64,000 nucleotides of DNA, taken from an uncultured Gemmatimonadota bacterium (GTDB lineage Bacteria > JAAXHH01). Shown here piece by piece: positions 19,401 to 31,123 of this stretch (its first letter is position 1; each line of letters begins with the position of its first letter). Location of the stretch: the NCBI GenBank assembly GCA_951812955.1, contig OX638340.1, positions 1,696,001 through 1,760,000 on the forward strand, given 5' to 3'. The notes under the pieces are model-generated. The model did not search any database. It was given only the letters and a program-made list of their open reading frames with translations, and was not told the origin of the DNA. A program made the position numbers and the translations under genes.

Positions 19401-20018
19401 TCAGGTCTGGGTCCGTCTGGCCACCATGCGCCGGATCACGCGGTGGCCTTCATCGATGTCTTCTTCGTGCAGCACGGAGAATCGGCCGGCGGGCAGGCGG
19501 TCGGCCGGTTCACCTTCTTTGATACACCAGTCCGGATTCTGCGAAGCCCGGTAGCGCAGATGGTCGAGCGTAAAGCCCTGCCACGCGATGAGCCCGCCAT
19601 CAGCGACCACGGGCCAGGCGTAGTCGAAGACCGCCTGCTCCCAGTACATCACGCAGATTACGAGCGCGAATTTACGATCAGCGGGCGGACGCCAGGCATT
19701 CAGGTCCGCTTCCACACAGGTCAGCCGGGTCCCAAGGCCCTGCTCCGCGGCCTCCGTACGAAGCCGGTCCAGGGCCACGTTCGATATGTCGACGGCAAGC
19801 ACCTCGCGTCCGGCCCCGACCTGGGCCAGTGCCTGGGCTGACATGCCGCACGCGAGTTCCAATACGGGTCCTTCCGGATATCCCAGCTTGGCCGCCTGTT
19901 CGTACAGCGGGCATGATTCTCGCGGCGCCAGGCGCTTCGGCTCCCGGTATCGCGCGTTCCACTTCAGCCGGTCGGGATGGTCTTCGAAGGGTTGCGTGCG
20001 GGGCTCCGTGTTATTCAA
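19401..20018 (-). CDS. Class I SAM-dependent methyltransferase (start tentatively TTG at 20018; no in-frame ATG is available)
   Basis: Motif I VLELACGMSAQ, the acidic motif II VLAVDIS, and motif III LVICVMYW. The ORF-track start at 20300 would overlap the upstream gene by 232 nt. Confidence 0.55.
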   Translation of the reverse strand: MNNTEPRTQPFEDHPDRLKWNARYREPKRLAPRESCPLYEQAAKLGYPEGPVLELACGMSAQALAQVGAGREVLAVDISNVALDRLRTEAAEQGLGTRLTCVEADLNAWRPPADRKFALVICVMYWEQAVFDYAWPVVADGGLIAWQGFTLDHLRYRASQNPDWCIKEGEPADRLPAGRFSVLHEEDIDEGHRVIRRMVARRTQT

Positions 20019-20068
20019 AACGAAAATGCTTCCGTTTGCTGATCGAACCGGGACAACTACGAAGGAAT

Positions 20069-21115
20069 CTACCGTGCCTGAACTTCCTGCGCCACGACGA
20101 GAATGTGGCTGCCCTGCCTGACCGGCTGGCGGAAAGACTGCGACAGAACATAGCCGTCCACGCCCGCGCGCACCGGCCAGGGCGGGTCGTCCATGCGATA
20201 GAAATCGTGCAGGTTGCCCACGACCTGTCCCGCTTTCACGAGGTCGCCGCAGGCCATCAGTGGTTCGTAGTGTCCTGGAAAGGGCGCAGGTACGTAACAT
20301 TCCCGGTCGATAATCGCGGTTAGTTTCTGGGTGCCGTCGGCGTGGTGGGCGATGGGCCGGATATCCCCGACAAGCTGGCCGTGATGAATGGCCGCGGCGC
20401 GTATGCCGTGCCGCGCGTACCGCACGCCGTCGGGATTGACCGATTCGCCCCAGCCCAGTTCCGTTCCGATCGTGATCTTTCCCAGCCTTTCCGCCTCGCT
20501 GACCATCAGCCCAGGGGTCTCGTTCTGGTACACCATAATGAAGGGCGTACCGAACCAGCGGGCCGTGTCTTCGATGACGGCCGACTGGTCAGGATCATCC
20601 ACTTCGTGAAAACTCGAGCACTGTGCAAAGTCGAGTTCGGCGCCACCGGAATGGATGTCCGTCACGACGTGCACACGGGGCCATAGATATTCCCGTACGA
20701 AACGGGCGATACGGTGCGTGATGCCCGCGAGGGCCGGCGACGTCCCTGCGCCGTCCACGAAAGCCCGGTTCAGGTTAACCCCGTCATCTGCGTCGCTTGC
20801 CCGCCGGCCCACGTGGAACGCCCCGGGGTTGAGCACGGGGATGAGGATCAGCCGGCCCCTTACCGCCTCCAGCTCGATCTCCTGAAGCAGTCCCTTGATC
20901 GCGACCGGTCCTTCGTATTCGTTACCGTGATTGGACCCGCTGGCCATGAGCCCCTGGCCTTCTCGGGCGTCGGGCCCTACCAGGACCGTTAAGGGGATGA
21001 GATGATCCGCCCAGAGCGAATCGTGTTCCAGGGCGACCCAGTAGTCCCTGCGCCCCGGGGAATCGAGATCGAGCCTGTCGGGTCGTACCACTTCACGGGG
21101 CATGCCGGTCTCCAA
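20069..21115 (-). CDS. Succinylglutamate desuccinylase / aspartoacylase (AstE/AspA) family zinc hydrolase
   Basis: SGSNHGNEYEG zinc-binding motif and the overall ~350-aa M14-like architecture. Confidence 0.8.
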   Translation of the reverse strand: METGMPREVVRPDRLDLDSPGRRDYWVALEHDSLWADHLIPLTVLVGPDAREGQGLMASGSNHGNEYEGPVAIKGLLQEIELEAVRGRLILIPVLNPGAFHVGRRASDADDGVNLNRAFVDGAGTSPALAGITHRIARFVREYLWPRVHVVTDIHSGGAELDFAQCSSFHEVDDPDQSAVIEDTARWFGTPFIMVYQNETPGLMVSEAERLGKITIGTELGWGESVNPDGVRYARHGIRAAAIHHGQLVGDIRPIAHHADGTQKLTAIIDRECYVPAPFPGHYEPLMACGDLVKAGQVVGNLHDFYRMDDPPWPVRAGVDGYVLSQSFRQPVRQGSHILVVAQEVQAR

Positions 21116-21182: not shown

Positions 21183-21324
21183 CCCACCGAGACGCCGAGC
21201 AATCCGCGATCATCGCGCCCCACACCGAATTGCCGAGCAGTCCGCGATCATCGCGCGTCACACCGAAACGCCGAGCAGTCCGCGGCCACCGCGCGTCACA
21301 CCGAGACGCCGAGCAGTCCGCGAG
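21183..21324. repeat. Tandem repeat of a ~38-bp unit (caccgaRacgccgagcaRtccgcgRYcaYcgcgcgt), ~3.7 copies
   Basis: Read directly. Units are contiguous with no spacers. The array overlaps the last codons and the 3' flank of the UxaA-family gene. Confidence 0.85.
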
Positions 21325-24037
21325 TAATTTGGAAATCCGTGTTGCCGAGGGCCTCGGCCCGGGGCGTATGAATACTGGCGGCCGTGCGTCGGATCAGGTC
21401 CAGGATGTCTTTCCGCTGTGCCTCCGGTCCACCTTCCAGGATGTGGTCCACGTCTTCGCGGAAAGGTCCGGGCAGGTCCTCCGCACCGACCAGGAGTACT
21501 GGAATCATGGGATGGCCGGGCAGTGGATGGCTGCCGACCCCAGCGACGACCAGCTCCACGCCGGAAGCGCCCAGCCCGGTCATGGTCTCCACCCAGTGCG
21601 TAGTCTGTGACTCCATGACGTGCAGCCCGGGCACGGTAAAAGGTTCGCCATAGGCCAAAGTAGGCTTTGCCGGTCCGTCCGCCAGGTGACGCACGAAGGA
21701 CGGATGACCAAGCAACGCCGAGTTGTCCGGCACGACGACCGTTCCACCCTCGCTTACGACATCGAGGATCAGCCGTGAAAGCGCTTCGGAAAGGTCATCG
21801 GAGAGCGGATCGGCCGCGGACACACCCAGCCTGAGATCGGACAGACCGGTATTGCCCGCGACAGGACCATCGCAATCTTCCAGGGTCTCGGCGAACCAGG
21901 TTTCGATGCGATCGATTGCCTTTTCGATACCGCCATCGAGCTGTACGCTGGCCCAGCCGAATCCCGCTGGATCTATGCCGCGGTCCAGCAACTGCTGCCG
22001 ATAGAAGTCGTTGTGCGTGCGTTCGCAGCCATGCTCCAGAAGCAGGGCGGCCCCCGTCATCGGGTGGGTCAGGTAGCCGGTCATGGTGCGGATGTACATC
22101 TCCTCCGACACGCCGCCCGATACGCCGCACCCCTCGGTGTGTACCAGGGTGACGAATCGGGATATGCCGGCCCCGCACCCAACACCTTTCGCACTCAGCC
22201 GCTCCGCGGCCATCCGGGCGATCTGTCCGGAGCACAGGCTGGTGGGTAGAATCAGGCCGACGCGGTCTGTGGCGAGGTTTCCGTTCACTTCGTACATGGG
22301 CAGTTCGAAAGGCGGTGGAGGCGTCGACGCCTCGTTCGAGCGGACCGCCAGCGGTTCTCCCATCGGCGCTGGCCTGTCGCGGAGGACCTGCAGCCGACTC
22401 CCGTCTGTCTGGCGCCAGTCGCGCCAGATCTGGGTCTGGCTGTGACCCGCCTTTTCGCCGCGGGTCAGTTCGCCCGAGGCCGTTCGCAATGTCAGGTCAA
22501 GAGTCCTTCGTCCCAGTTCGTCCATGGATTCGCCGTCCAGGTAGGCGCCGGCGTTGACGTCCATTTCGCCCGAAAGCATTTCGTACCGTTTCGTAGTCGT
22601 CACGATTTTGATCGTAGGGACAAAAGGAAAGTTGGTGATGGATCCGTTGCCGGTTATGAAGAAGATGACATTGCCGCCGGACGCTACCTGGCCGGCGATA
22701 GCTTCCAGGTCGTTGCCGGGACTGTCCATGAAGTAGTACCCCGGCTCCTTCATCGGTACCGCGTAGTCGATGGCGTAGTCGAGTCGTACGTCGGGGTGGC
22801 GCTTCCGGGCCGCGCCGATGGATTTGAGCACGATGTTGTAAATCCCCCTGAGCTTGTTGCCCCCGGAGGGGTTGGCATCCACCGACTGGCCATGCCACGC
22901 CGTTCGCTCCTGGAAACGCTCGATCATGTGGAGGAACGTGCGGGCCGTCTCGATATCCCGGACATTCTGCAGCACATAGGGTTCGCCGCCGATGAGCTCG
23001 TCAGTTTCGGCAAGACTGGCCTTGCCTCCGAAGCGGATGATCTCCCGTGCGACGAGCGCGGCCAGCGGATTGCCCGATATGCCCGAAAACGAATCCGAAC
23101 CACCGCACTGAAGCACGATGTTGAGATGGGACGCGGAAGCCGGCATCCGTGCGACGCGGTTAACCGTCTCGAACCAGCCGGTGACGAACCTCGCACTACG
23201 CTCAAGTTCCTCGTCAAATCCGCCTTTGAGCGTTTCAAAACGGTGCAGCACCTCGTTCAGCGGATAGCCGTTAAGCCGCATGTAGTTTTCCAGCATCCGG
23301 TCCGTCACGATTTCTGTTCCGCGGTCCACCGCGTAGACCGCACCCACATTGGGATGGACCATGAAGCCCGCCAGCGTCCGCAGCACCAGTTCCCGGTTAT
23401 TGGGGTCCACCCCGGCGCCGCCCTCGGTATGTGCCACGGCCACGACGCCATCTATATTCGGATACCGTTCCACCTTTTCCTTCAGTCTGGATTCCAGCCG
23501 CCGCACGAATCCTGCCGTCTGCGACGTAATGCCCAGGAGGACGATGAAGTTCCGGGTTCCGACGCCCCGCGCCTTCCCTCTGTCATATCCATCGAAGGTC
23601 GGAGGCTTGTCGCTGACAGGAATCTGCTCGCCCGGTGTGAAGGTGGATTCGTCCAGCTCGTAGGGTACCACGCGGTCTTCGAAGTTCGGCTGATCCGGGA
23701 GGGCGAAATCTACCTGCCGTACGCGGAGGGCGTTGAGAATGTCGCCGTTGCAGATGTAATCGCCCGGCGCGATGTCCCGGGTCGCCCGTCCGAAAGGCTG
23801 TCCCCAGGACAGGACGTACTCCCCGGCAGGTATGGCCCGGATGGCGAAACGATGCCCTTCCAGCAGTGAATGGGCGACGGAAAAGGAGTTGCCGGTTTCG
23901 TTGGCAACGCGCGTGCCGGCCTCCAGCCTTCGGGACACGATGGCCACGTTGTCGCCGGGTTCGGCAAGGCGCGCAATGTCTTTCAGGCGGCAGACGGACA
24001 CGATGCCAGGATCCTTGCTGTTAGCATATCTAACCAT
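21296..24037 (-). CDS. UxaA-family (altronate / galactarate dehydratase-like) protein with an internal tandem duplication: SAF domain + Cys-less dehydratase copy + second Cys-containing dehydratase copy
   Basis: 913-aa continuous ORF. Contains an N-terminal SAF domain and a first dehydratase module with the GD_AH_C signatures (CGGSDSFSGISGNP, FFITGNGS, HSQTQIWRDWRQ) but no Cys in the iron-site region. A second module has the Cys ligands (LILPTSLCSGQIA, HTEGCGVSGG, LEHGCE) and ends with FQITRG. Confidence 0.75.
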   Translation of the reverse strand: MVRYANSKDPGIVSVCRLKDIARLAEPGDNVAIVSRRLEAGTRVANETGNSFSVAHSLLEGHRFAIRAIPAGEYVLSWGQPFGRATRDIAPGDYICNGDILNALRVRQVDFALPDQPNFEDRVVPYELDESTFTPGEQIPVSDKPPTFDGYDRGKARGVGTRNFIVLLGITSQTAGFVRRLESRLKEKVERYPNIDGVVAVAHTEGGAGVDPNNRELVLRTLAGFMVHPNVGAVYAVDRGTEIVTDRMLENYMRLNGYPLNEVLHRFETLKGGFDEELERSARFVTGWFETVNRVARMPASASHLNIVLQCGGSDSFSGISGNPLAALVAREIIRFGGKASLAETDELIGGEPYVLQNVRDIETARTFLHMIERFQERTAWHGQSVDANPSGGNKLRGIYNIVLKSIGAARKRHPDVRLDYAIDYAVPMKEPGYYFMDSPGNDLEAIAGQVASGGNVIFFITGNGSITNFPFVPTIKIVTTTKRYEMLSGEMDVNAGAYLDGESMDELGRRTLDLTLRTASGELTRGEKAGHSQTQIWRDWRQTDGSRLQVLRDRPAPMGEPLAVRSNEASTPPPPFELPMYEVNGNLATDRVGLILPTSLCSGQIARMAAERLSAKGVGCGAGISRFVTLVHTEGCGVSGGVSEEMYIRTMTGYLTHPMTGAALLLEHGCERTHNDFYRQQLLDRGIDPAGFGWASVQLDGGIEKAIDRIETWFAETLEDCDGPVAGNTGLSDLRLGVSAADPLSDDLSEALSRLILDVVSEGGTVVVPDNSALLGHPSFVRHLADGPAKPTLAYGEPFTVPGLHVMESQTTHWVETMTGLGASGVELVVAGVGSHPLPGHPMIPVLLVGAEDLPGPFREDVDHILEGGPEAQRKDILDLIRRTAASIHTPRAEALGNTDFQITRGLLGVSV

Positions 24038-24083
24038 TTCCTACGCAATTAAATCGACGGAAGAATAAACTATAGAAACAAGA

Positions 24084-25334
24084 CTACGTATCTTTGGAGA
24101 GCATCAACTGGATTTTGGGATGGAGATGGCTAACAAGCCTATTCAAGTGATCCCTCATCCAGGAAACAGCGTTCTCGAAATCCGGGGTTTCCCCTTCTTG
24201 TGACAGAAACGACATATCACAGTCCAGATAAAACCCAATTCTTGGTCTATCGGCCGTGTTGTACCACTGGTCGAGGTTATTACCAAGTACTTTTTTAAGA
24301 TCCTCAAACGAGGCATTGATTTCTTCAAAGATCCTGACTTCTCGAGTCTGGTTTTTACGAACTGTAAGATAGCATCCGATTGCCCCGTTTTGTCGGTACA
24401 GATAACCCACAAAACTCAATGCCCAACCGTTGAATGATGAATTCTTTACTGGTAAATATAGAGTTGGATCTTTAGGTGGTTTGGGCCATAACTCAGTCAG
24501 TGAATCTATGGTTGAATCCGAAAACGAGAAATCTTTCAAAACTGCATTCCAAAATCGCAGGTTTTCCTTTTCATATGGTGATTCTTGATAATCATCATCA
24601 CTAGATTCGTCCAGGTCTGCAGGTACGACAGCTCCATTATCACTCTCAATTACGAAACGTCGTACGATTTCAGTACGCGCAAGTACACGAGGATGAACAA
24701 ACAGATTGTGGGCTTTATCGCGGTAAAGGGCCGCTTCCACTAGTGCCAGGTTGAAGTGTAATCCACTGTGGCGCTGTACGAAATCTACTATGTTTTCCAC
24801 ACCTTCCCGAATACCATCGCCAACTATCAATAGTAGGAATTCCCCGCGTTTCAGGTGACGTGAGACATTGTCAACGAATTCAGCTTCATTCAGGTTTGAT
24901 TTTTCTTTACGCACTTTTACGTAGAGAACATTCCCATTCATGCCGGTATTCAGAGATACTTCACGTTGCAAATCTTCGTAATCCCACGAAGCTACTTCCT
25001 TCGTGTAGTCGAGTATTTGGCCAATAACCTCTCGCCGTGCCTGCTGGTTACGCCAGAGTTTGAACTCAACTAGTACAAGTTTTCCTAAGTGGTTTGCGTA
25101 TAACGCGTCTAAGTATCCAGCATTAGTATTCAACTCTCGACAGATTGGAACTAATCCTTCGTATGCAGGATCGATGGCTGTTATTGGTAGAGCTTGTGGA
25201 TGACAAAAAAGAAGCTTTTGTAGCTTTTCTTCGTAAATGCTCCCGTCAGATACTCCAGTATCAAGTGGGACACGAGTTACAACTTCTGGATCTTCGTCTT
25301 CGACATTATTCACAATGATCAGTTTATCTGACAT
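24084..25334 (-). CDS. PD-(D/E)xK nuclease-fold protein (NucS/DUF91-like N-terminal domain plus an uncharacterised C-terminal domain), the only gene in an AT-rich island
   Basis: AGYLDALYANHLGKLVLVEFKLW...REVIGQILDYT matches the D...(E)xK...QxxxY core of RecB/NucS-like nucleases. About 42% GC versus ~65% in the flanks. Confidence 0.55.
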   Translation of the reverse strand: MSDKLIIVNNVEDEDPEVVTRVPLDTGVSDGSIYEEKLQKLLFCHPQALPITAIDPAYEGLVPICRELNTNAGYLDALYANHLGKLVLVEFKLWRNQQARREVIGQILDYTKEVASWDYEDLQREVSLNTGMNGNVLYVKVRKEKSNLNEAEFVDNVSRHLKRGEFLLLIVGDGIREGVENIVDFVQRHSGLHFNLALVEAALYRDKAHNLFVHPRVLARTEIVRRFVIESDNGAVVPADLDESSDDDYQESPYEKENLRFWNAVLKDFSFSDSTIDSLTELWPKPPKDPTLYLPVKNSSFNGWALSFVGYLYRQNGAIGCYLTVRKNQTREVRIFEEINASFEDLKKVLGNNLDQWYNTADRPRIGFYLDCDMSFLSQEGETPDFENAVSWMRDHLNRLVSHLHPKIQLMLSKDT

Positions 25335-25601
25335 TTACACACTCCAAATTTTGTCACGATTACAGATCCTGATACTTCCTTGCGCCAAAAGTATCTGAAG
25401 TAGATTTCAAATTTCGACACTTTCAGGCCATTCTTGTATTGAGAACGTAATTGATGAAATCCTCGATTCCCGGACTGGCAAGGTACCACTCGCCCCGACT
25501 CCGTGTCAAAGGTAATTCGGCGGCCGCCGATCCGCCCGCCGGATGCCGCGAGCGGCACAGTTGACGCTGCGGCCGAACGGTGTACATTGTCTTCCGGACT
25601 T

Positions 25602-25694
25602 GGTTCGTCTCACGGGCCGGACGCGGTTTCGTCTCACGGACCATTCACGGTTTCATCTCAATCGACGGTCGCGGTTTCATCCAGCGGAACCCCT
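25602..25694. repeat. Four direct repeats with exact 23-bp periodicity (core cGGTTTCrTCTCA) ~50 bp upstream of the following gene; putative regulator-binding sites
   Basis: Core copies start at 25602, 25625, 25648 and 25671, read directly. Confidence 0.6.
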
Positions 25695-25740
25695 CGCTTC
25701 CAGATTCCGATCCAGAACATCCGCCAGCCGGAGGTCCAAA

Positions 25741-27333
25741 ATGCTTGTAGGGTACGTCAGCGACGAACGATATGTTGCCATTCCTGAAGTCCTGCTCGAA
25801 TTCGAAGCCGGCGGGGAATCCATCGAAGCGCGCTCGCGGGCTACGGGGGCGGTCTACGCGGACGTAACGCCCGGACGGGAATACAGGGTCACGCTGGCAT
25901 GCAGGGATTTCGGATTCAAGAGCGTGTACATGACACCGCGCGAAGACCAACCCTACCATTTCCGGCTGTTGCGGGACGACCTGCTGGGCTACATGTGGCC
26001 CAAGTGGGTCCGTACCGGGGAGAAATCGGAATTCCGCGTGCACGCCGTGGAGGCCTACCAGTTGGAACTCTACCGCTACGGATGGAAGAAGGAATACATC
26101 CGGAACATCGGCTGGTACGACGAGCACGGCCCCCGCGCCACGATGCAGATCACGCCCGATGGCGATTACACGCGGTCCGGGGTGAAGTGGAACACCCAGG
26201 GCTATACCAATCCCGCCCACAAACAATACATCGAGGCGCCGGAACGGTCCGGCCTGTACTACCTGCACGCTTCCACTGAGAACGGCGGTTTCTTTTCCTT
26301 CCCCTGGATCGTCGCACCGGCCGCGCCGTCAGCCGACGTCGCCGTACTGGCCGCCAACATCAACTGGAACGCCTACAACAACTTCGGGGGCCGTAGCAAT
26401 TACATCCACGCCGACGAGTTTCCGCCGACCCCCACGGTCAACGCCCGCTACGACCTGAAGCGGTACACCGATCCCTCGCACCGGATGTACAGCGCGGAAG
26501 ACTATGCGCCGCTCTCCTTCGACCGGCCGGAACCGATAAACCACGTTCCCGAGGACGACGAAGCGATGGACATGATCGCGGGTCGCGCGGCGTGCCACGT
26601 CGCGCCCGCGGAGTGGCGTTACCTGGCCTGGATGGAACGGGAGGGATTCGGCTACGACCTATATGCGGAGACGCAGTTCCATGACGGCACGCTGCCCCTT
26701 GACCGGTACCGGGTGCTGATCACCACTACCCACCCGGAATACTGGTCGAAGGACATGTATTTCCGGCTCAAGGCCTGGGTATTCGAATCAGGTGGCAGGC
26801 TCATGTATCTGGGCGGCAATGGCCTGAATTGCGAGGTCGTGTTCGTCGACGAGTACACCATGAAGGTCATGAACGGCAACATCGATTCTCTCGACCGGCC
26901 AGGGGTGGGCATTGAAAGCCGTTTCAACATCTACAACGAATCGGAAGCCAACCTGCTCGGCGTCGCCTTCACGCGGACGGGGATCATGACCAGCGCGCCT
27001 TACCGCGTGATCGACGCAGGCCACTGGGTCTTCGAAGGTACCGGGGTACAGGAAGGAGATATCTTCGGCGAAGCCAGCCTGCACGAACGGGTCCCCGGCG
27101 GCGCGTCGGGACACGAGACCGACAAGATTACCCCGAGTTCACCGCCGAACACCCACCTGATCGCCAAGGGCACCAACGTGGATGATGGCGGCGCCGAGAT
27201 GGTCGTGCATGAGACGGAAAGCGGCGGGATGGTCTTCTCGGCGGGATCGATCACCTATCCGTCGTCGATCCTCGTCGACGACGTGGTGTCGCGGGTCACG
27301 TCCAACGTGCTGAAGCGGTTTCTGGTGGACTGA
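25741..27333 (+). CDS. Large hydrolase-like protein, tentatively N,N-dimethylformamidase large-subunit-like (DUF6605-type)
   Basis: 530 aa with high coding GC3. Family assignment is from memory of motifs (INWNAYNNFGG, YRVLITTTHPEYWS) and is not verified. Confidence 0.45.
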   Translation: MLVGYVSDERYVAIPEVLLEFEAGGESIEARSRATGAVYADVTPGREYRVTLACRDFGFKSVYMTPREDQPYHFRLLRDDLLGYMWPKWVRTGEKSEFRVHAVEAYQLELYRYGWKKEYIRNIGWYDEHGPRATMQITPDGDYTRSGVKWNTQGYTNPAHKQYIEAPERSGLYYLHASTENGGFFSFPWIVAPAAPSADVAVLAANINWNAYNNFGGRSNYIHADEFPPTPTVNARYDLKRYTDPSHRMYSAEDYAPLSFDRPEPINHVPEDDEAMDMIAGRAACHVAPAEWRYLAWMEREGFGYDLYAETQFHDGTLPLDRYRVLITTTHPEYWSKDMYFRLKAWVFESGGRLMYLGGNGLNCEVVFVDEYTMKVMNGNIDSLDRPGVGIESRFNIYNESEANLLGVAFTRTGIMTSAPYRVIDAGHWVFEGTGVQEGDIFGEASLHERVPGGASGHETDKITPSSPPNTHLIAKGTNVDDGGAEMVVHETESGGMVFSAGSITYPSSILVDDVVSRVTSNVLKRFLVD

Positions 27334-27420
27334 TCGGCGAGCGTTGCCCCGGACTTGAGAGCTTGGGAGCGAGGATCGCGCGGTTTTTCGCACCATCGGA
27401 TCAAGACGCGCACCTCAATC

Positions 27421-28371
27421 CTACAACTTCCTCTGGTAGACCCCCGTCACCCGGTGGTTCATTCCCTTCTCGAGGATCAGGTCCGCCCGTTCTCGGGTTG
27501 GAATGATGTTATCGCGCAGGTTCACCAGGTTGATGTCCCGCCAGATTCCCCTGGCCGTTTCCACGGCCTCTTCCGTACTCAGGCCAGCATAGTGATGGAA
27601 GTAGGACTCGGGATTTTGAAAAGCGGTATCCCGTAGCCTCAGGAACCGGTCGACGTACCACTGCGCCAGATCGTGTTCCTCGGCTTCCACGTAAATCGAG
27701 AAATCGATGAAGTCGGATACGAAGACACGAGGCGACGCGTCGCCGGCCAGGTGATGGCCGGTCTGCAGGATGTTCAACCCCTCCAGGATGATGATATCGG
27801 GCTGCGTGATCGTCTTTTCGACGCCGGGCACGATATCGTAGATCAGATGCCTGTACACCGGAACGGTGACCGTCTCACGGCCCGACTTCACGTCCGCCAT
27901 CATCCGCACCAGACGCCGGAGATCGTAGCTCTCCGGAAAGCCCTTCCGCTGCATGAGTCCTCTTTCCTCAAGGACCCGGTTGGAAAACAGGAATCCGTCC
28001 GTGGTGACCAGGTCCACCCGGGGATGGTTCGGCCAGCGGCTCAGCAGGGCCTGCAGGATACGCGCCGTCGTGCTCTTACCCACCGCCACGCTGCCTCCGA
28101 TACCGATTACGTAGGGCACTTTGGCGGCCGGTTTGCCGAGGAAGGTGTCCATTACCCGGTACAGGTGCTGCGCCGCGCCAACATGCAGGTTGAGAAACCG
28201 CGACATGGGCAGGTACACCTCGGCGACCTCGTCGAGGTGTACCATCTCGTTGATGCCGTGCAGTTCCTTCAGGTCTTCTTCCGACAGCGTCAGCGGCGTA
28301 GCGGCGCGCAGTTCCGACCACTCGTCGCGGGACATGTAGTTGAAAGGGGAAAGAGAAGACGATGGGGACAT
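27421..28371 (-). CDS. coaA: Type I pantothenate kinase
   Basis: P-loop [18 protein letters not shown] and the PRK/uridine-kinase fold motifs. 316 aa, typical of CoaA. Confidence 0.85.
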
Positions 28372-28441
28372 GGCTTCCTTCCGAATGGTTCCAATGGGAC
28401 CACTGATCTATCGCGGGGATGCCCGCGGACCGGCCGGCCGA

Positions 28442-29551
28442 TCAGTCTATCACGGCCCTTTCGACCATCTGTTGTTCGAGCAGTTCCGGCACGGGTTCCG
28501 CCCCCGCGCCGGGCGTATCAGAAAGGACCATTTGCGATGGGCCCGAAAGTTCCAGTCGCGGCGCGCTCAGGTCCCGCTCGTAGAACCTGGTACTGGGAAA
28601 AACGTCCGATGGGTATTTCATATTGGGCAGCGTCGCCAGCGCCATGCAGAACGAAGCGCCCAGGGCCGATTCGAGCATGCCGCCCGTCCAGCAGGGAACG
28701 CCCTCCTCTTCGCATATCCGGTTCACCTCGAGCGCCTGGGTCACCCCGCCGACCCGGGCGGGCTTGATGTTGATCCACCGGGCCGCGCCTATGCTGATCG
28801 CCTTTCGGGCCCTGTCGGGTGACGTAATGCTCTCGTCCAGGCATATCGGCGTCTCGATCGCGCTTTGCAACTCGGCGTGGTCGACCAGGTCGTCCCGCAT
28901 CAGCGGCTGCTCGATCATGGCCAGGTTGTACCGGTCCAGTTTCCTGAACATGGGCAGGTCGTCCAGCGTGTATCCGCTGTTGCAGTCGATGTGAAAAACG
29001 GAGTCCGGGAAGGCCGATCGGACCGCCGCGATCATGTCCAGATCCCATCCCCGGCTGTACTTCAGCTTGATCCGCTTGAAGCCCGCCTCCACGGCCTGCT
29101 CGATATTGCCCAGCAGCATGTCGATACTGTCCTGCACGCCGAAGTCCGCGCCAACCTCGATGACCGGCCCTTTGCCGCCAATCACCTGCCAGAGCGGCTT
29201 GCCCTCCATCCGGGCGTGCAGGTCCCACCACGCCGCGTCCAGGCCTCCCTTGGCGAAGTAGTTGCCCGCGACCCAGGCGCAGGTCTCGTGCAGATCCCGG
29301 CCGCTGTCGACCCGCCTGCCCACCAGCAGGGGAGCGAGCACGTCACGGGTCACGGCGTATACACCGGCCGTGTATTCCGGGCTGTAGGTTGGCCGGGCGA
29401 GGGGAGTCGTCTCGCCCCAGCCCACGGCATCGCCGGCATGCATCTTCACGATGACGCTCTCGATGACGTCGTCACTGCCGTAGGCCGTGCGCCACGGATA
29501 GATCAGGGGCATGGCGACGTGATATAGCTCGACTGCGTCGATGACGGGCAT
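28442..29551 (-). CDS. Enolase-superfamily enzyme (o-succinylbenzoate synthase / N-acylamino acid racemase / dipeptide epimerase-like)
   Basis: KLK (RIKLKYS), DCN (HIDCNSGY), E (IEQP) and D (LDES) metal and acid/base residues in canonical order. Confidence 0.8.
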   Translation of the reverse strand: MPVIDAVELYHVAMPLIYPWRTAYGSDDVIESVIVKMHAGDAVGWGETTPLARPTYSPEYTAGVYAVTRDVLAPLLVGRRVDSGRDLHETCAWVAGNYFAKGGLDAAWWDLHARMEGKPLWQVIGGKGPVIEVGADFGVQDSIDMLLGNIEQAVEAGFKRIKLKYSRGWDLDMIAAVRSAFPDSVFHIDCNSGYTLDDLPMFRKLDRYNLAMIEQPLMRDDLVDHAELQSAIETPICLDESITSPDRARKAISIGAARWINIKPARVGGVTQALEVNRICEEEGVPCWTGGMLESALGASFCMALATLPNMKYPSDVFPSTRFYERDLSAPRLELSGPSQMVLSDTPGAGAEPVPELLEQQMVERAVID

Positions 29552-29557
29552 AGCGTC

Positions 29558-30769
29558 CTACCCTCTCAGATCGGACAGCAACCGGCCGGTGACCGCCTCC
29601 GCGAAGGCGGGATCGTTGATGTTGCAGTCCATCTCCGTCACCGTCACGTCGCCGGATACGTTCGATTTGATGGCGTCGTAAAGGGCCTGGTCGGCATCGG
29701 GCCACCAGAACTCGTTCCCAGGGCTGTCCAGGATGGACACGCCCTTCAAGGGGAGAAAGATCGACACCGGCCCACCGGAGGCGTTGGCCTTCTCCGCGAT
29801 AATCTCGCCGAGACGGACATTCTCCTCCACGTTGGTCCGCATCAGGGTGATGTTCGGATTCCATTTGTGCAACCTGCGGTTCCGGTACTTCTCCGGCACC
29901 GTGTCCGGCGCCCAGAAGTTGACCATATCCAGGCAACCCGGCACGATCACCTGTGGAATGCCCGCCCTGCCCGCGGCATCCATACGTTCGGGACCCGCTG
30001 TCAGGACGCCTCCGGCCAGTTCGTCGGCCCATTCCGTGGTGGTGATGTCGAGTACGCCCTCGATCAGGCCCTCGTCGATCAGGCCCTCCATGGTTCGGCC
30101 GCCCGCGCCGGTGCAGTGGAAGACAAGCACCTCATAGCCCGCTTCCTCCATGATGGCCCGGGCCAGGTCCACGGCCTCGGTGGTGTTGCCGAACATGCTG
30201 GCGGTGATCAGCGGCTTGTCTTCTGCCGCTTCCTGTACGTCGGTTTCAACCATCCCCGCGATCGCGCCCGCGGCGTTGGCAAAGATCCGCCGGCTGATGC
30301 GGTTGATTCCGGCCACGTCCACGACGGAGGGGATCATCACCACGTCCTTGATCCCCACGTAGTTGGTCGTATCTCCGGCAGCCACGGTGGACACCATCAC
30401 CTTGGGCACCCCGACGGGCAGCGCCCGCATAGCGCTCGTGCCTACCGCGGTACCGGCGGAACCGCCCATGCTTATGATTCCATCGAACACGCCGGCTTCA
30501 TACAGGCCCTGCGCGATCTCCGCGACGCCTGCCGCCATGGCGTCAATAGCCTCGCCGCGGTCGCCGCGCTTCTTCAACGCTGCTATCGTCGTGCCGGCGG
30601 CCTCTGCGACCTGGTCCTTCGACACGTCCGCTTCGAAAGCGGAATCCCCGATGACACCCGTATCGATGATCAACGTCCCGTGTCCGTGTCGTTCTATCTC
30701 GTCTTTCACGAAGGCGAATTCGTCTCCCTTGGTATCGAGCGCGCCTACGATGGCAATGGTTTTAGGCAT
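29558..30769 (-). CDS. UPF0261 / Tm-1-like family protein
   Basis: N-terminal IAIVGALDTKGDE and the overall two-domain layout of Tm-1-like proteins. ATG at 30769 with a GGAGAGGG RBS. 6-bp gap to the downstream enolase-family gene. Confidence 0.7.
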   Translation of the reverse strand: MPKTIAIVGALDTKGDEFAFVKDEIERHGHGTLIIDTGVIGDSAFEADVSKDQVAEAAGTTIAALKKRGDRGEAIDAMAAGVAEIAQGLYEAGVFDGIISMGGSAGTAVGTSAMRALPVGVPKVMVSTVAAGDTTNYVGIKDVVMIPSVVDVAGINRISRRIFANAAGAIAGMVETDVQEAAEDKPLITASMFGNTTEAVDLARAIMEEAGYEVLVFHCTGAGGRTMEGLIDEGLIEGVLDITTTEWADELAGGVLTAGPERMDAAGRAGIPQVIVPGCLDMVNFWAPDTVPEKYRNRRLHKWNPNITLMRTNVEENVRLGEIIAEKANASGGPVSIFLPLKGVSILDSPGNEFWWPDADQALYDAIKSNVSGDVTVTEMDCNINDPAFAEAVTGRLLSDLRG

Positions 30770-31123
30770 TGCATTCCCTCTCCAAGTCTGGTATCGATTT
30801 GCGATATAATCCTTCTTAATCCGACTAATCAAGTTACAGGTACGCGAAGATATTGTACATACCTTTATACCAAGTGTTTCGAGTTCATAACGCCGCGACC
30901 ACAACGCTCCCGGACACCGTTTGTGCCAGGTAAATTGATGGCTCCGGACGGCAAACCATTAGATTATTACGACCTGAGGAGGACAATACGGCATCGTGTG
31001 CGCAATGCAGGAATAAGTACCTTGACATGGATGGTAAATCATTACTTATTACGTAACGAATTATGTATCAGTCAGCCTTAGCATGAGGATGTGGAAAGCG
31101 GTGAGTGGTTCAACTTGCATTGA

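Follow-up and report, generated by a model that had tools for sequence, protein, structure and literature searches.

Among the described members of the UxaA/GarD superfamily, the D-arabinonate dehydratase C785_RS13685, the D-idonate dehydratase and the heteromeric L-fuconate-type dehydratases (Watanabe et al. 2019, PMC6336799) serve as the reference for the four conserved cysteines (Cys1 to Cys4) and for iron dependence. A rubredoxin-like four-Cys iron site has been proposed, while an EPR signal at g~2.02 was also reported (PMC6336799). Sulfolactate sulfo-lyase is the one exception to the conservation of the four residues among the members, and SuyAB is counted as a functional enzyme of the superfamily (PMC6336799). 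Since SuyB as an accepted member also lacks the full set, the four cysteines do not define the whole superfamily, and their role in the canonical enzymes is unsettled. Canonical members reportedly form homodimers that pair via the second domain, and the GarD crystal structure is said to contain only Ca2+, bound in the C-domain.

While the superfamily members discussed in PMC6336799 are all single-module proteins without any two-module fusion, two modules are encoded by a gene on the minus strand of the window analysed here, i.e. the whole 64,000-nucleotide stretch of DNA from an uncultured Gemmatimonadota bacterium. The product is a putative sugar-acid dehydratase of ~900 residues made of two fused UxaA/GarD-type modules; it is real, widely conserved and uncharacterised. 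SAF is followed by a full UxaA/GarD module (module 1) and a divergent one (module 2). An earlier note on this DNA had described an uninterrupted frame of 913 aa with one SAF domain and two such modules, all of which is borne out:

21296..24037, minus strand: whole ORF, 913 aa plus stop, uninterrupted
23738..23962, minus strand: SAF (beta-clip) domain, aa 26-100; Pfam SAF at aa 29-95 (E 6e-7), PDB matches 3k3s and 3laz
23153..23599, minus strand: second domain of module 1 (D2'), aa 147-295; Pfam GD_AH_second at aa 150-292 (80.6 bits)
22415..23152, minus strand: C-terminal domain of module 1 (D3), aa 296-541; Pfam GD_AH_C at aa 302-541 (250.5 bits)
22307..22414, minus strand: inter-module linker, aa 542-577; no invariant columns, pLDDT 71-84
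21872..22306, minus strand: second domain of module 2 (D2), aa 578-722; Pfam GD_AH_second at aa 595-721 (53.4 bits, above cut-off)
21299..21871, minus strand: C-terminal domain of module 2 (D3'), aa 723-913; GarD-like fold, degenerate, partial Pfam GD_AH_C match

The true start is likely the GTG at 24001..23999 (minus strand), with AAGGA located 10 nt on its 5' side, which would shorten the protein to 901 aa. This is indicated by the first 12 codons of the ORF, an AT-rich and unconserved stretch next to a low-GC insertion, and by the length of the closest homologues retrieved in the homologue search (901 aa).

A domain search of the translated ORF returned a single SAF domain for the two modules, two GD_AH_second matches, and one complete and one partial GD_AH_C match (Pfam gathering cut-offs 21, 27.3 and 26.8 bits for SAF, GD_AH_second and GD_AH_C, respectively). 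SAF and module 1, at 30.3, 80.6 and 250.5 bits, exceed these cut-offs in the domain order of the UxaA/GarD superfamily (COG2721), and the GD_AH_C match of module 1 is complete (profile positions 1-240 of 242). In module 2, the second domain also scores above the cut-off, which contradicts the concern that this half could be unrelated to UxaA. Its C-domain matches GD_AH_C at aa 793-906 with 21.1 bits, i.e. below the cut-off and in profile positions 120-238 only. In the predicted structures, each module adopts a GarD-like fold: module 1 plus SAF superposes on the whole GarD chain with a TMt of 0.84 (AF2 model), while the two domains of module 2 form a GarD-like pair by themselves. Unlike E. coli GarD (PDB 6U7L) and UxaA, the protein thus comprises ~900 aa with a second module; compared with both, module 1 lacks Cys1-3, and module 2 has no SAF, no Cys4 and no C-domain motifs and is shorter by a segment of ~60 aa. 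An identity as GarD was rejected, as the whole protein attains 178.5 bits with the GarD equivalog TIGR03248 (module 1, 166.1; module 2, 15.6) against a cut-off of 730.85. The architecture is absent from the characterised family members with which motifs and domains were compared, as the earlier note had supposed, and a literature search for a two-module architecture or an Fe-S assignment in UxaA returned nothing relevant.

Comparison of the two halves with each other yielded a BLASTP E of 1e-7 and, in a profile-profile alignment with hhalign, a probability of 99.8% (E 7e-28, 336 aligned columns, 20% identity). Judged from these alignments, their homology is far beyond chance. The modules share only ~20-23% identity and no direct DNA repeat was found within the ORF at 21296..24037; by this measure they hence represent an ancient duplication or a paralogue fusion, and no mis-assembly. 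The term internal tandem duplication used in the earlier note is acceptable as a description of the architecture. With regard to origin, however, module 2 is no nearer to module 1 (23% identity) than to other family members (22-24%), so that a fusion of old paralogues would be equally possible.

The two-module arrangement recurs in more than 160 full-length homologues with 37-95% identity from at least eight phyla, some of which come from complete chromosomes and cultured strains (Rubrobacter indicoceani, Paenibacillus piri, Alicyclobacillus fodiniaquatilis). Short matches that suggest a stand-alone module 2 are mostly N-terminally truncated fragments. One match considered as a split or stand-alone module 2 (P0175) was rejected as a scaffold-gap artefact, its locus (L011) being a scaffold gap. 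Another short module 2 match (P0127) comprises 346 aa on a 1.9-kb contig.

According to the earlier note, module 1 had lost its cysteine ligands. Three of the four conserved cysteines are indeed missing. In alignments to GarD, UxaA and SuyB, their positions correspond to Q173 (in ITSQTAG, aa 170-176), the Gly-rich HTEGG loop around G206 (AHTEGGAG, aa 202-209), in which GarD Cys2 has no partner residue, and T241. Yet, module 1 is not Cys-free, as the fourth cysteine is kept as C311 in LQCGGSD (codon 23105-23107). Moreover, module 1 carries all non-Cys hallmarks that are common to E. coli UxaA, B. cepacia GarD, the P. alexandrii heteromeric large subunit (which retains all four cysteines) and a SuyB orthologue, the references of our motif alignment. 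These are VGxRN, which D2' keeps as RGVGTRN along with HTEG, and CGGSD..SG...NP, ET.E, GNK.GG....K..G, PGxD, TG.G, VP.IK and DVNAG. The module terminates with QIWR (aa 536-539).

Module 2 retains the very cysteines that are missing from module 1, namely C602 in LCSGQIA (aa 601-607; codon 22232-22234), C637 in HTEGCGVSGG (aa 633-642; 22127-22129) and C671 in LEHGCE (aa 667-672; 22025-22027); its own tail is FQITR (aa 902-906). These motifs and tails all lie where the earlier note had placed them. D2 has no VGxRN motif and features the family-specific invariant residues E668, H669, H675 and N676, with S697, Q699 and D701 as further invariant polar residues near the cysteines. The Cys face of module 2 comprises 30 invariant residues and is, by this conservation, under strong selection. 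In D3', Cys4 is replaced by V739, the C-domain hallmarks CGGSD, ET.E, PGxD, TG.G, VP.IK and DVNAG are all gone, and a deletion of ~60 residues spans the NPSGGNK...LKSIGAA motif, while the tail DFQxTRGLLGVS is conserved. Of the family motifs in the alignment, only Cys1-3, HTEG and HP..GA are retained in module 2.

Hence, the four cysteines found in C785_RS13685 (C134, C173, C208, C276) do not occur together in either module: module 1 has Cys4 only and module 2 has Cys1-3 only. In 166 full-length homologues (120 close and 46 divergent), C311, C602, C637 and C671 are always cysteine, whereas the Cys1-3 positions of module 1 and the Cys4 position of module 2 never are. In terms of sequence, each module has lost a different half of the conserved features of the family, and this reciprocal pattern is invariant.

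A precedent for module 1 is provided by SuyB. In our alignment, the orthologue from Paracoccus versutus lacks Cys1-3 and keeps Cys4 as well as VGVRN, which is the pattern of module 1; at only 27% identity, this common pattern is a shared property and no proof of orthology. SuyB is also organised differently, with ~393 aa, SAF on a separate small subunit and no second module, whereas SAF is fused and a second module is present here. The P. versutus gene is located between genes for a small UxaA-family subunit and a sulfate-exporter-family protein. Unlike at this suyAB locus, no suyZ-type exporter gene was found near the gene under study, which thus does not show the SuyAB architecture of separate SAF small subunit, ~390-aa large subunit and nearby suyZ.

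On balance, the protein is probably best viewed, albeit with considerable reserve, as a single-chain pseudo-heterodimer in which module 1 is catalytic, with module 2 as a degenerate partner retaining a three-Cys metal site, as motif patterns and structure models suggest. Two diverged modules of an iron-dependent UxaA/GarD acid-sugar dehydratase would have been fused, each preserving a different ancestral subset. Most likely, it is module 1 and not module 2 that catalyzes the reaction. Module 1 (SAF-D2'-D3) would carry the sole dehydratase active site, with D3 as its candidate catalytic domain, and work like the Cys-poor SuyB, equipped with SAF, a D2' that bears VGxRN and HTEG, the fourth cysteine and the metal- and substrate-associated motifs of the C-domain. 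Module 2 (D2-D3'), devoid of SAF and C-domain motifs, would be non-catalytic and may take the place of a second subunit in the dimer. Its three-Cys site, next to the new invariant Glu-His and His-Asn residues, probably binds iron or an iron-sulfur centre and would serve a structural or regulatory purpose. A purely structural role, however, would explain the strong selection on this site less naturally than a catalytic one. The candidate substrate is a sugar acid or a similar 2-hydroxy acid, a class suggested by family membership alone.

The exact 1 + 3 complementarity of the cysteines counts against the pseudo-heterodimer, as it is what a single composite site would give. Such a site, which we consider unlikely, would extend across the modules, with C311 and C602/C637/C671 restoring a four-Cys iron site, D3 and D2 forming the live site and D2' and D3' the dead pair. 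One copy of each conserved cysteine survives, split 1 + 3 in all 166 homologues, and PMC6336799 proposes that four cysteines bind one iron. In addition, conservation is highest in D3 and D2, one from each module (invariant-column fractions: D3, 0.35; D2, 0.21; D2', 0.16; D3', 0.05), and D3, with 85/246 invariant columns, Cys4 and the hallmark motifs, is the best-conserved part of the protein. Heterodimeric ABC transporters have degenerate composite sites, which the proposed arrangement would resemble. Yet, D2' is undegenerate; the canonical VGxRN, absent from D2, is present there, and with 16% invariant columns the domain has not decayed, which counts against a live site formed by D3 and D2 in trans. 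The predicted models likewise show the canonical within-module GarD arrangement for module 1 (TMt 0.84) and a self-contained GarD-like pair for module 2, whose Cys loops gain no order in the full-length model relative to that of the isolated module. Moreover, SuyB retains Cys4 without Cys1-3, so that the function of Cys4 does not depend on the other cysteines. When covariation was analysed by mutual information with APC (243 full-length sequences, Neff 127), variable loops and phylogenetic noise dominated the signal; because it hardly varies, D3 contributed few pairs.

It appears improbable that both clefts are functional, be it with two activities or with a catalytic site and a gating iron- or redox-sensing site, although each has a strongly conserved face. 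This possibility draws on the genomic context of some lineages, in which FeoAB and a DtxR-like gene adjoin the homologue (9/80 loci) or two Nramp genes are found nearby (Rubrobacter). However, this link to ferrous-iron or Mn transporters is lineage-restricted, and D3' shows no recognisable second apparatus for substrate binding. Across the 80 loci, no conserved operon was found, the commonest neighbour family being Gfo/Idh/MocA in 15/80, and the neighbourhood differs among phyla. Where informative, the context fits acid-sugar metabolism. For example, a plasmid island of Rubrobacter indicoceani encodes a glucose 1-dehydrogenase, an MR/MLE enzyme, a four-carbon acid sugar kinase and a GntR regulator, and another locus (L009) has lactonases, a kinase and an aldolase nearby.

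The reverse assignment proposed in the earlier note, i.e. a catalytic, Cys-bearing module 2 and a module 1 serving as pseudo-enzyme or regulatory module, is more doubtful still. Module 2 keeps the three second-domain cysteines that are conserved in most family members, and the invariant polar residues E668, H669, H675, N676, S697, Q699 and D701 surround them. It is, however, without SAF, the C-domain hallmarks and the NPSGGNK segment of ~60 aa, and no other part of the protein is as poorly conserved as its C-domain (5% invariant columns in D3' against 35% in D3). Module 1, with all non-Cys hallmarks and a D3 that scores 250 bits against GD_AH_C, does not look like a decaying pseudo-enzyme, and its lack of Cys1-3 has the SuyB precedent. 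Finally, an assembly or annotation artefact, whether a mis-assembled tandem repeat as considered in the earlier note or falsely joined genes, has practically nothing in its favour, given two modules of ~20-23% identity, an ORF free of DNA repeats and more than 160 independent full-length homologues, some on complete chromosomes or in cultured strains, a survey that refutes it.

Taken together, these findings correct the annotation of ~900-aa proteins whose labels, "altronate dehydratase" or "UxaA family hydrolase", have no substrate evidence behind them. What the iron centre of UxaA/GarD dehydratases is and does has yet to be settled, and the family represents a natural separation-of-function experiment, with the second-domain cysteines and the C-domain motifs residing in different modules of one chain and this split arrangement being fixed across at least eight phyla. 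If the composite site were true, the protein would be a natural half-dead pseudo-dimer, and the active site of UxaA/GarD dehydratases would turn out to combine the second domain from one subunit with the C-domain from its partner; the fused protein would also offer a system with one site per chain for settling the iron centre of these enzymes.

The two-module dehydratase is encoded by an uninterrupted open reading frame (ORF) of 913 aa at 21296..24037, as the earlier note had stated; it lies on the minus strand, and all motifs quoted there were found where it had placed them. Its layout of a SAF domain followed by two UxaA-type modules agrees with a Pfam domain search, in which the GD_AH_C match of module 2 is partial and sub-threshold.

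Pfam domains of the two-module dehydratase
aa 29-95, minus strand: SAF domain, the single copy in the protein
aa 150-292, minus strand: GD_AH_second of module 1, 80.6 bits
aa 302-541, minus strand: GD_AH_C of module 1, 250.5 bits, complete (profile positions 1-240 of 242)
aa 556-913, minus strand: span of module 2
aa 595-721, minus strand: GD_AH_second of module 2, 53.4 bits, above the cut-off
within module 2, minus strand: partial GD_AH_C, profile positions 120-238, 21.1 bits (cut-off 26.8)

Compared with each other, the modules prove homologous but old, both by BLASTP (23-28% identity, E 1e-7) and by profile-profile alignment with hhalign (20% identity over 336 aligned columns, probability 99.8%, E 7e-28).

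Directly upstream of the gene lies a low-GC segment (window ~24020-25700; 43% GC versus ~62% around it) that is missing at the syntenic Gemmatimonadota locus L001 and looks like a recent insertion. Its single ORF (24084..25334, minus strand, 416 aa) has no Pfam match and weakly resembles the PADLOC candidate defence family PDC-S11 (E 6e-8). Codons 1-12 of the 913-aa ORF adjoin this insertion, are AT-rich and lack conservation, and a GTG at 24001 with AAGGA ahead of it gives 901 aa, the length of the closest homologues. The insertion has probably displaced the promoter of the dehydratase gene and provided a spurious ATG at 24037.

The protein is one of a conserved family, of which a word-indexed search recovered 120 homologues of 55-95% identity, nearly all full-length at ~900 aa. 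An exhaustive search queried with just module 2 gave 787 clusters (50% identity) at E<=1e-3 and 223 at E<=1e-30, in which long matches span 718-1036 aa and the short ones inspected are mostly truncated fragments. When one genome per species was scanned, relatives turned up in at least 492 genomic stretches, with the top match (96% identity) in the Gemmatimonadetes MAG APA_bin_41, so that the window probably stems from a related Gemmatimonadota genome. The best 80 of these, each covered over nearly full length, stem from Gemmatimonadota, Latescibacterota, Poribacteria, Chloroflexota (Caldilineaceae, Anaerolineae), Actinomycetota (Rubrobacter), Deinococcota, Acidobacteriota and Verrucomicrobiota, as well as from the cultured Firmicutes Alicyclobacillus fodiniaquatilis and Paenibacillus piri. 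A 346-aa gene (ENA ERZ27247924 k141_3147207, 133-1173) matches module 2 only, with a Met start just ahead of the PTSLC motif; no module 1 gene end is readable in the 130 nt upstream, and on this short contig the gene may represent either a frameshifted fragment or a rare case of module 2 standing alone.

In their characterization of a D-arabinonate dehydratase of the UxaA/GarD superfamily, Watanabe et al. (PMC6336799) noted four Cys (C134, C173, C208 and C276; here Cys1-Cys4) kept by every member apart from sulfolactate sulfo-lyase, and proposed a rubredoxin-like iron site. Both modules were aligned to E. coli UxaA, B. cepacia GarD, the P. alexandrii heteromeric large subunit and a SuyB orthologue from Paracoccus versutus pTAV3, whose gene has on one side that of a small UxaA-family subunit (SuyA) and on the other a gene of the sulfate-exporter family taken to be of the suyZ type. 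The earlier note had described the module 1 iron site as devoid of Cys, which holds for Cys1 (Q173), Cys2 (HTEGG loop) and Cys3 (T241) but not for Cys4, kept as C311 in LQCGGSD. All other hallmarks common to the references are retained in module 1 (RGVGTRN; CGGSD-FSG-S-NP; AETDELIG; NPSGGNK-RG-YNI-LKSIGAA-K; FMDSPGNDLE; TGNGS-TNFPFVPTIK; MDVNAG). Module 2 does keep Cys1-3, namely C602 (PTSLCSGQ), C637 (HTEGCG) and C671 (LLLEHGCE), the last adjoined by the new invariant residues E668-H669 and H675-N676. It lacks VGxRN, Cys4 (V739 instead) and every C-domain motif, a ~60-residue deletion having taken out the NPSGGNK...LKSIGAA segment. The architecture survey found this pattern without exception in the 120 close and in 46 divergent full-length homologues (37-54% identity), and invariant columns are distributed as follows.

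Invariant columns (as a fraction) by domain
residues 26-100: SAF, 0.17
residues 147-295: second domain of module 1 (D2'), 0.16
residues 296-541: C-domain of module 1 (D3), 0.35
residues 542-577: inter-module linker, 0.00
residues 578-722: second domain of module 2 (D2), 0.21
residues 723-913: C-domain of module 2 (D3'), 0.05

The alignments thus point to reciprocal degeneration rather than to a dead first and a live second copy. The SuyB orthologue displays exactly the pattern of module 1, with VGVRN kept, Cys1-3 replaced (by Asp, Arg and Pro, respectively) and Cys4 kept in TKCGESD. Since PMC6336799 counts SuyAB as a functional enzyme of the superfamily, loss of Cys1-3 is no mark of a pseudo-enzyme, and the role of Cys4 is independent of Cys1-3.

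An AF2 model of the full protein (108 homologues; pLDDT 88.3, pTM 0.89) was matched by Foldseek to GarD (6u7l_A; 525 columns, TMt 0.84), the only full-length relative with a solved structure, which places SAF, D2' and D3 as in the GarD chain; the two-domain arrangement within each module is predicted to be canonical. GarD reportedly dimerises via its second domain. We lean towards reading the protein as a single-chain pseudo-heterodimer, in which module 1 would be the SuyB-like, Cys-poor catalytic module bearing the sole SAF domain, and module 2 would replace the partner subunit while retaining a three-Cys metal site. The main rival, a composite site made up of C311 together with C602, C637 and C671, would explain why the four Cys are split exactly 1 + 3 between the modules, yet it is rather doubtful given the intact VGxRN of D2', which has not decayed, the within-module arrangement of both modules, and SuyB, which has Cys4 without Cys1-3. 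Two functional clefts are unlikely, and a dead module 1 beside a catalytic module 2, as first proposed, is slightly more improbable, with the hallmarks beyond Cys kept by the former and the C-domain motifs lost from the latter. Artefactual duplication can be practically dismissed, because no direct DNA repeat was found within the ORF and mis-assembly therefore fails.

No conserved operon surrounds the gene among the 80 loci. A Gfo/Idh/MocA oxidoreductase is the commonest neighbour (15/80), and an MR/MLE enolase-superfamily gene occurs at 11/80 loci in four phyla. The Gemmatimonadota synteny comprises, in this order, UPF0261, MR_MLE and PRK-like genes, a divergent DMFA2_C gene, and the dehydratase gene followed by AstE/AspA-like and DUF1932 dehydrogenase genes. 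In the window, 25543..30904 holds the DMFA2_C-like (N,N-dimethylformamidase beta-like), PRK-like kinase, MR_MLE and UPF0261 genes. Throughout Gemmatimonadota this set is in synteny with the dehydratase gene, and it may, along with the AstE/AspA-like gene, make up a single uncharacterised catabolic island. Between the AstE/AspA-like and DUF1932 genes lies a 299-aa methyltransferase-domain ORF (19401..20300, minus strand) that has no counterpart at L001. As it overlaps the upstream gene with a long N-terminal extension, its true start is probably further downstream. In cultured Rubrobacter indicoceani, a homologue (60% identity across module 1) encoded on plasmid NZ_CP031116 (locus 150570-157393) and annotated solely as 'UxaA family hydrolase' sits within an acid-sugar island, its gene being flanked by two Nramp metal-transporter genes, and a DtxR-like-FeoA-FeoB cluster lies divergently upstream at 9/80 loci, all Latescibacterota. 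These adjoining ferrous-iron/divalent-metal transporter genes may reflect the metal demand of the enzyme or lineage synteny. The gene contexts fit an iron-dependent acid-sugar dehydratase in general but do not point to one substrate.

Two-module proteins are already in databases under generic names, and literature searches found no paper describing the architecture. Database labels as 'altronate dehydratase' are unsupported, and against the GarD equivalog model the two-module dehydratase scores 178.5 bits versus a cut-off of 730.85. Its fixed reciprocal degeneration makes the unsettled iron-centre question of the UxaA/GarD family directly testable.
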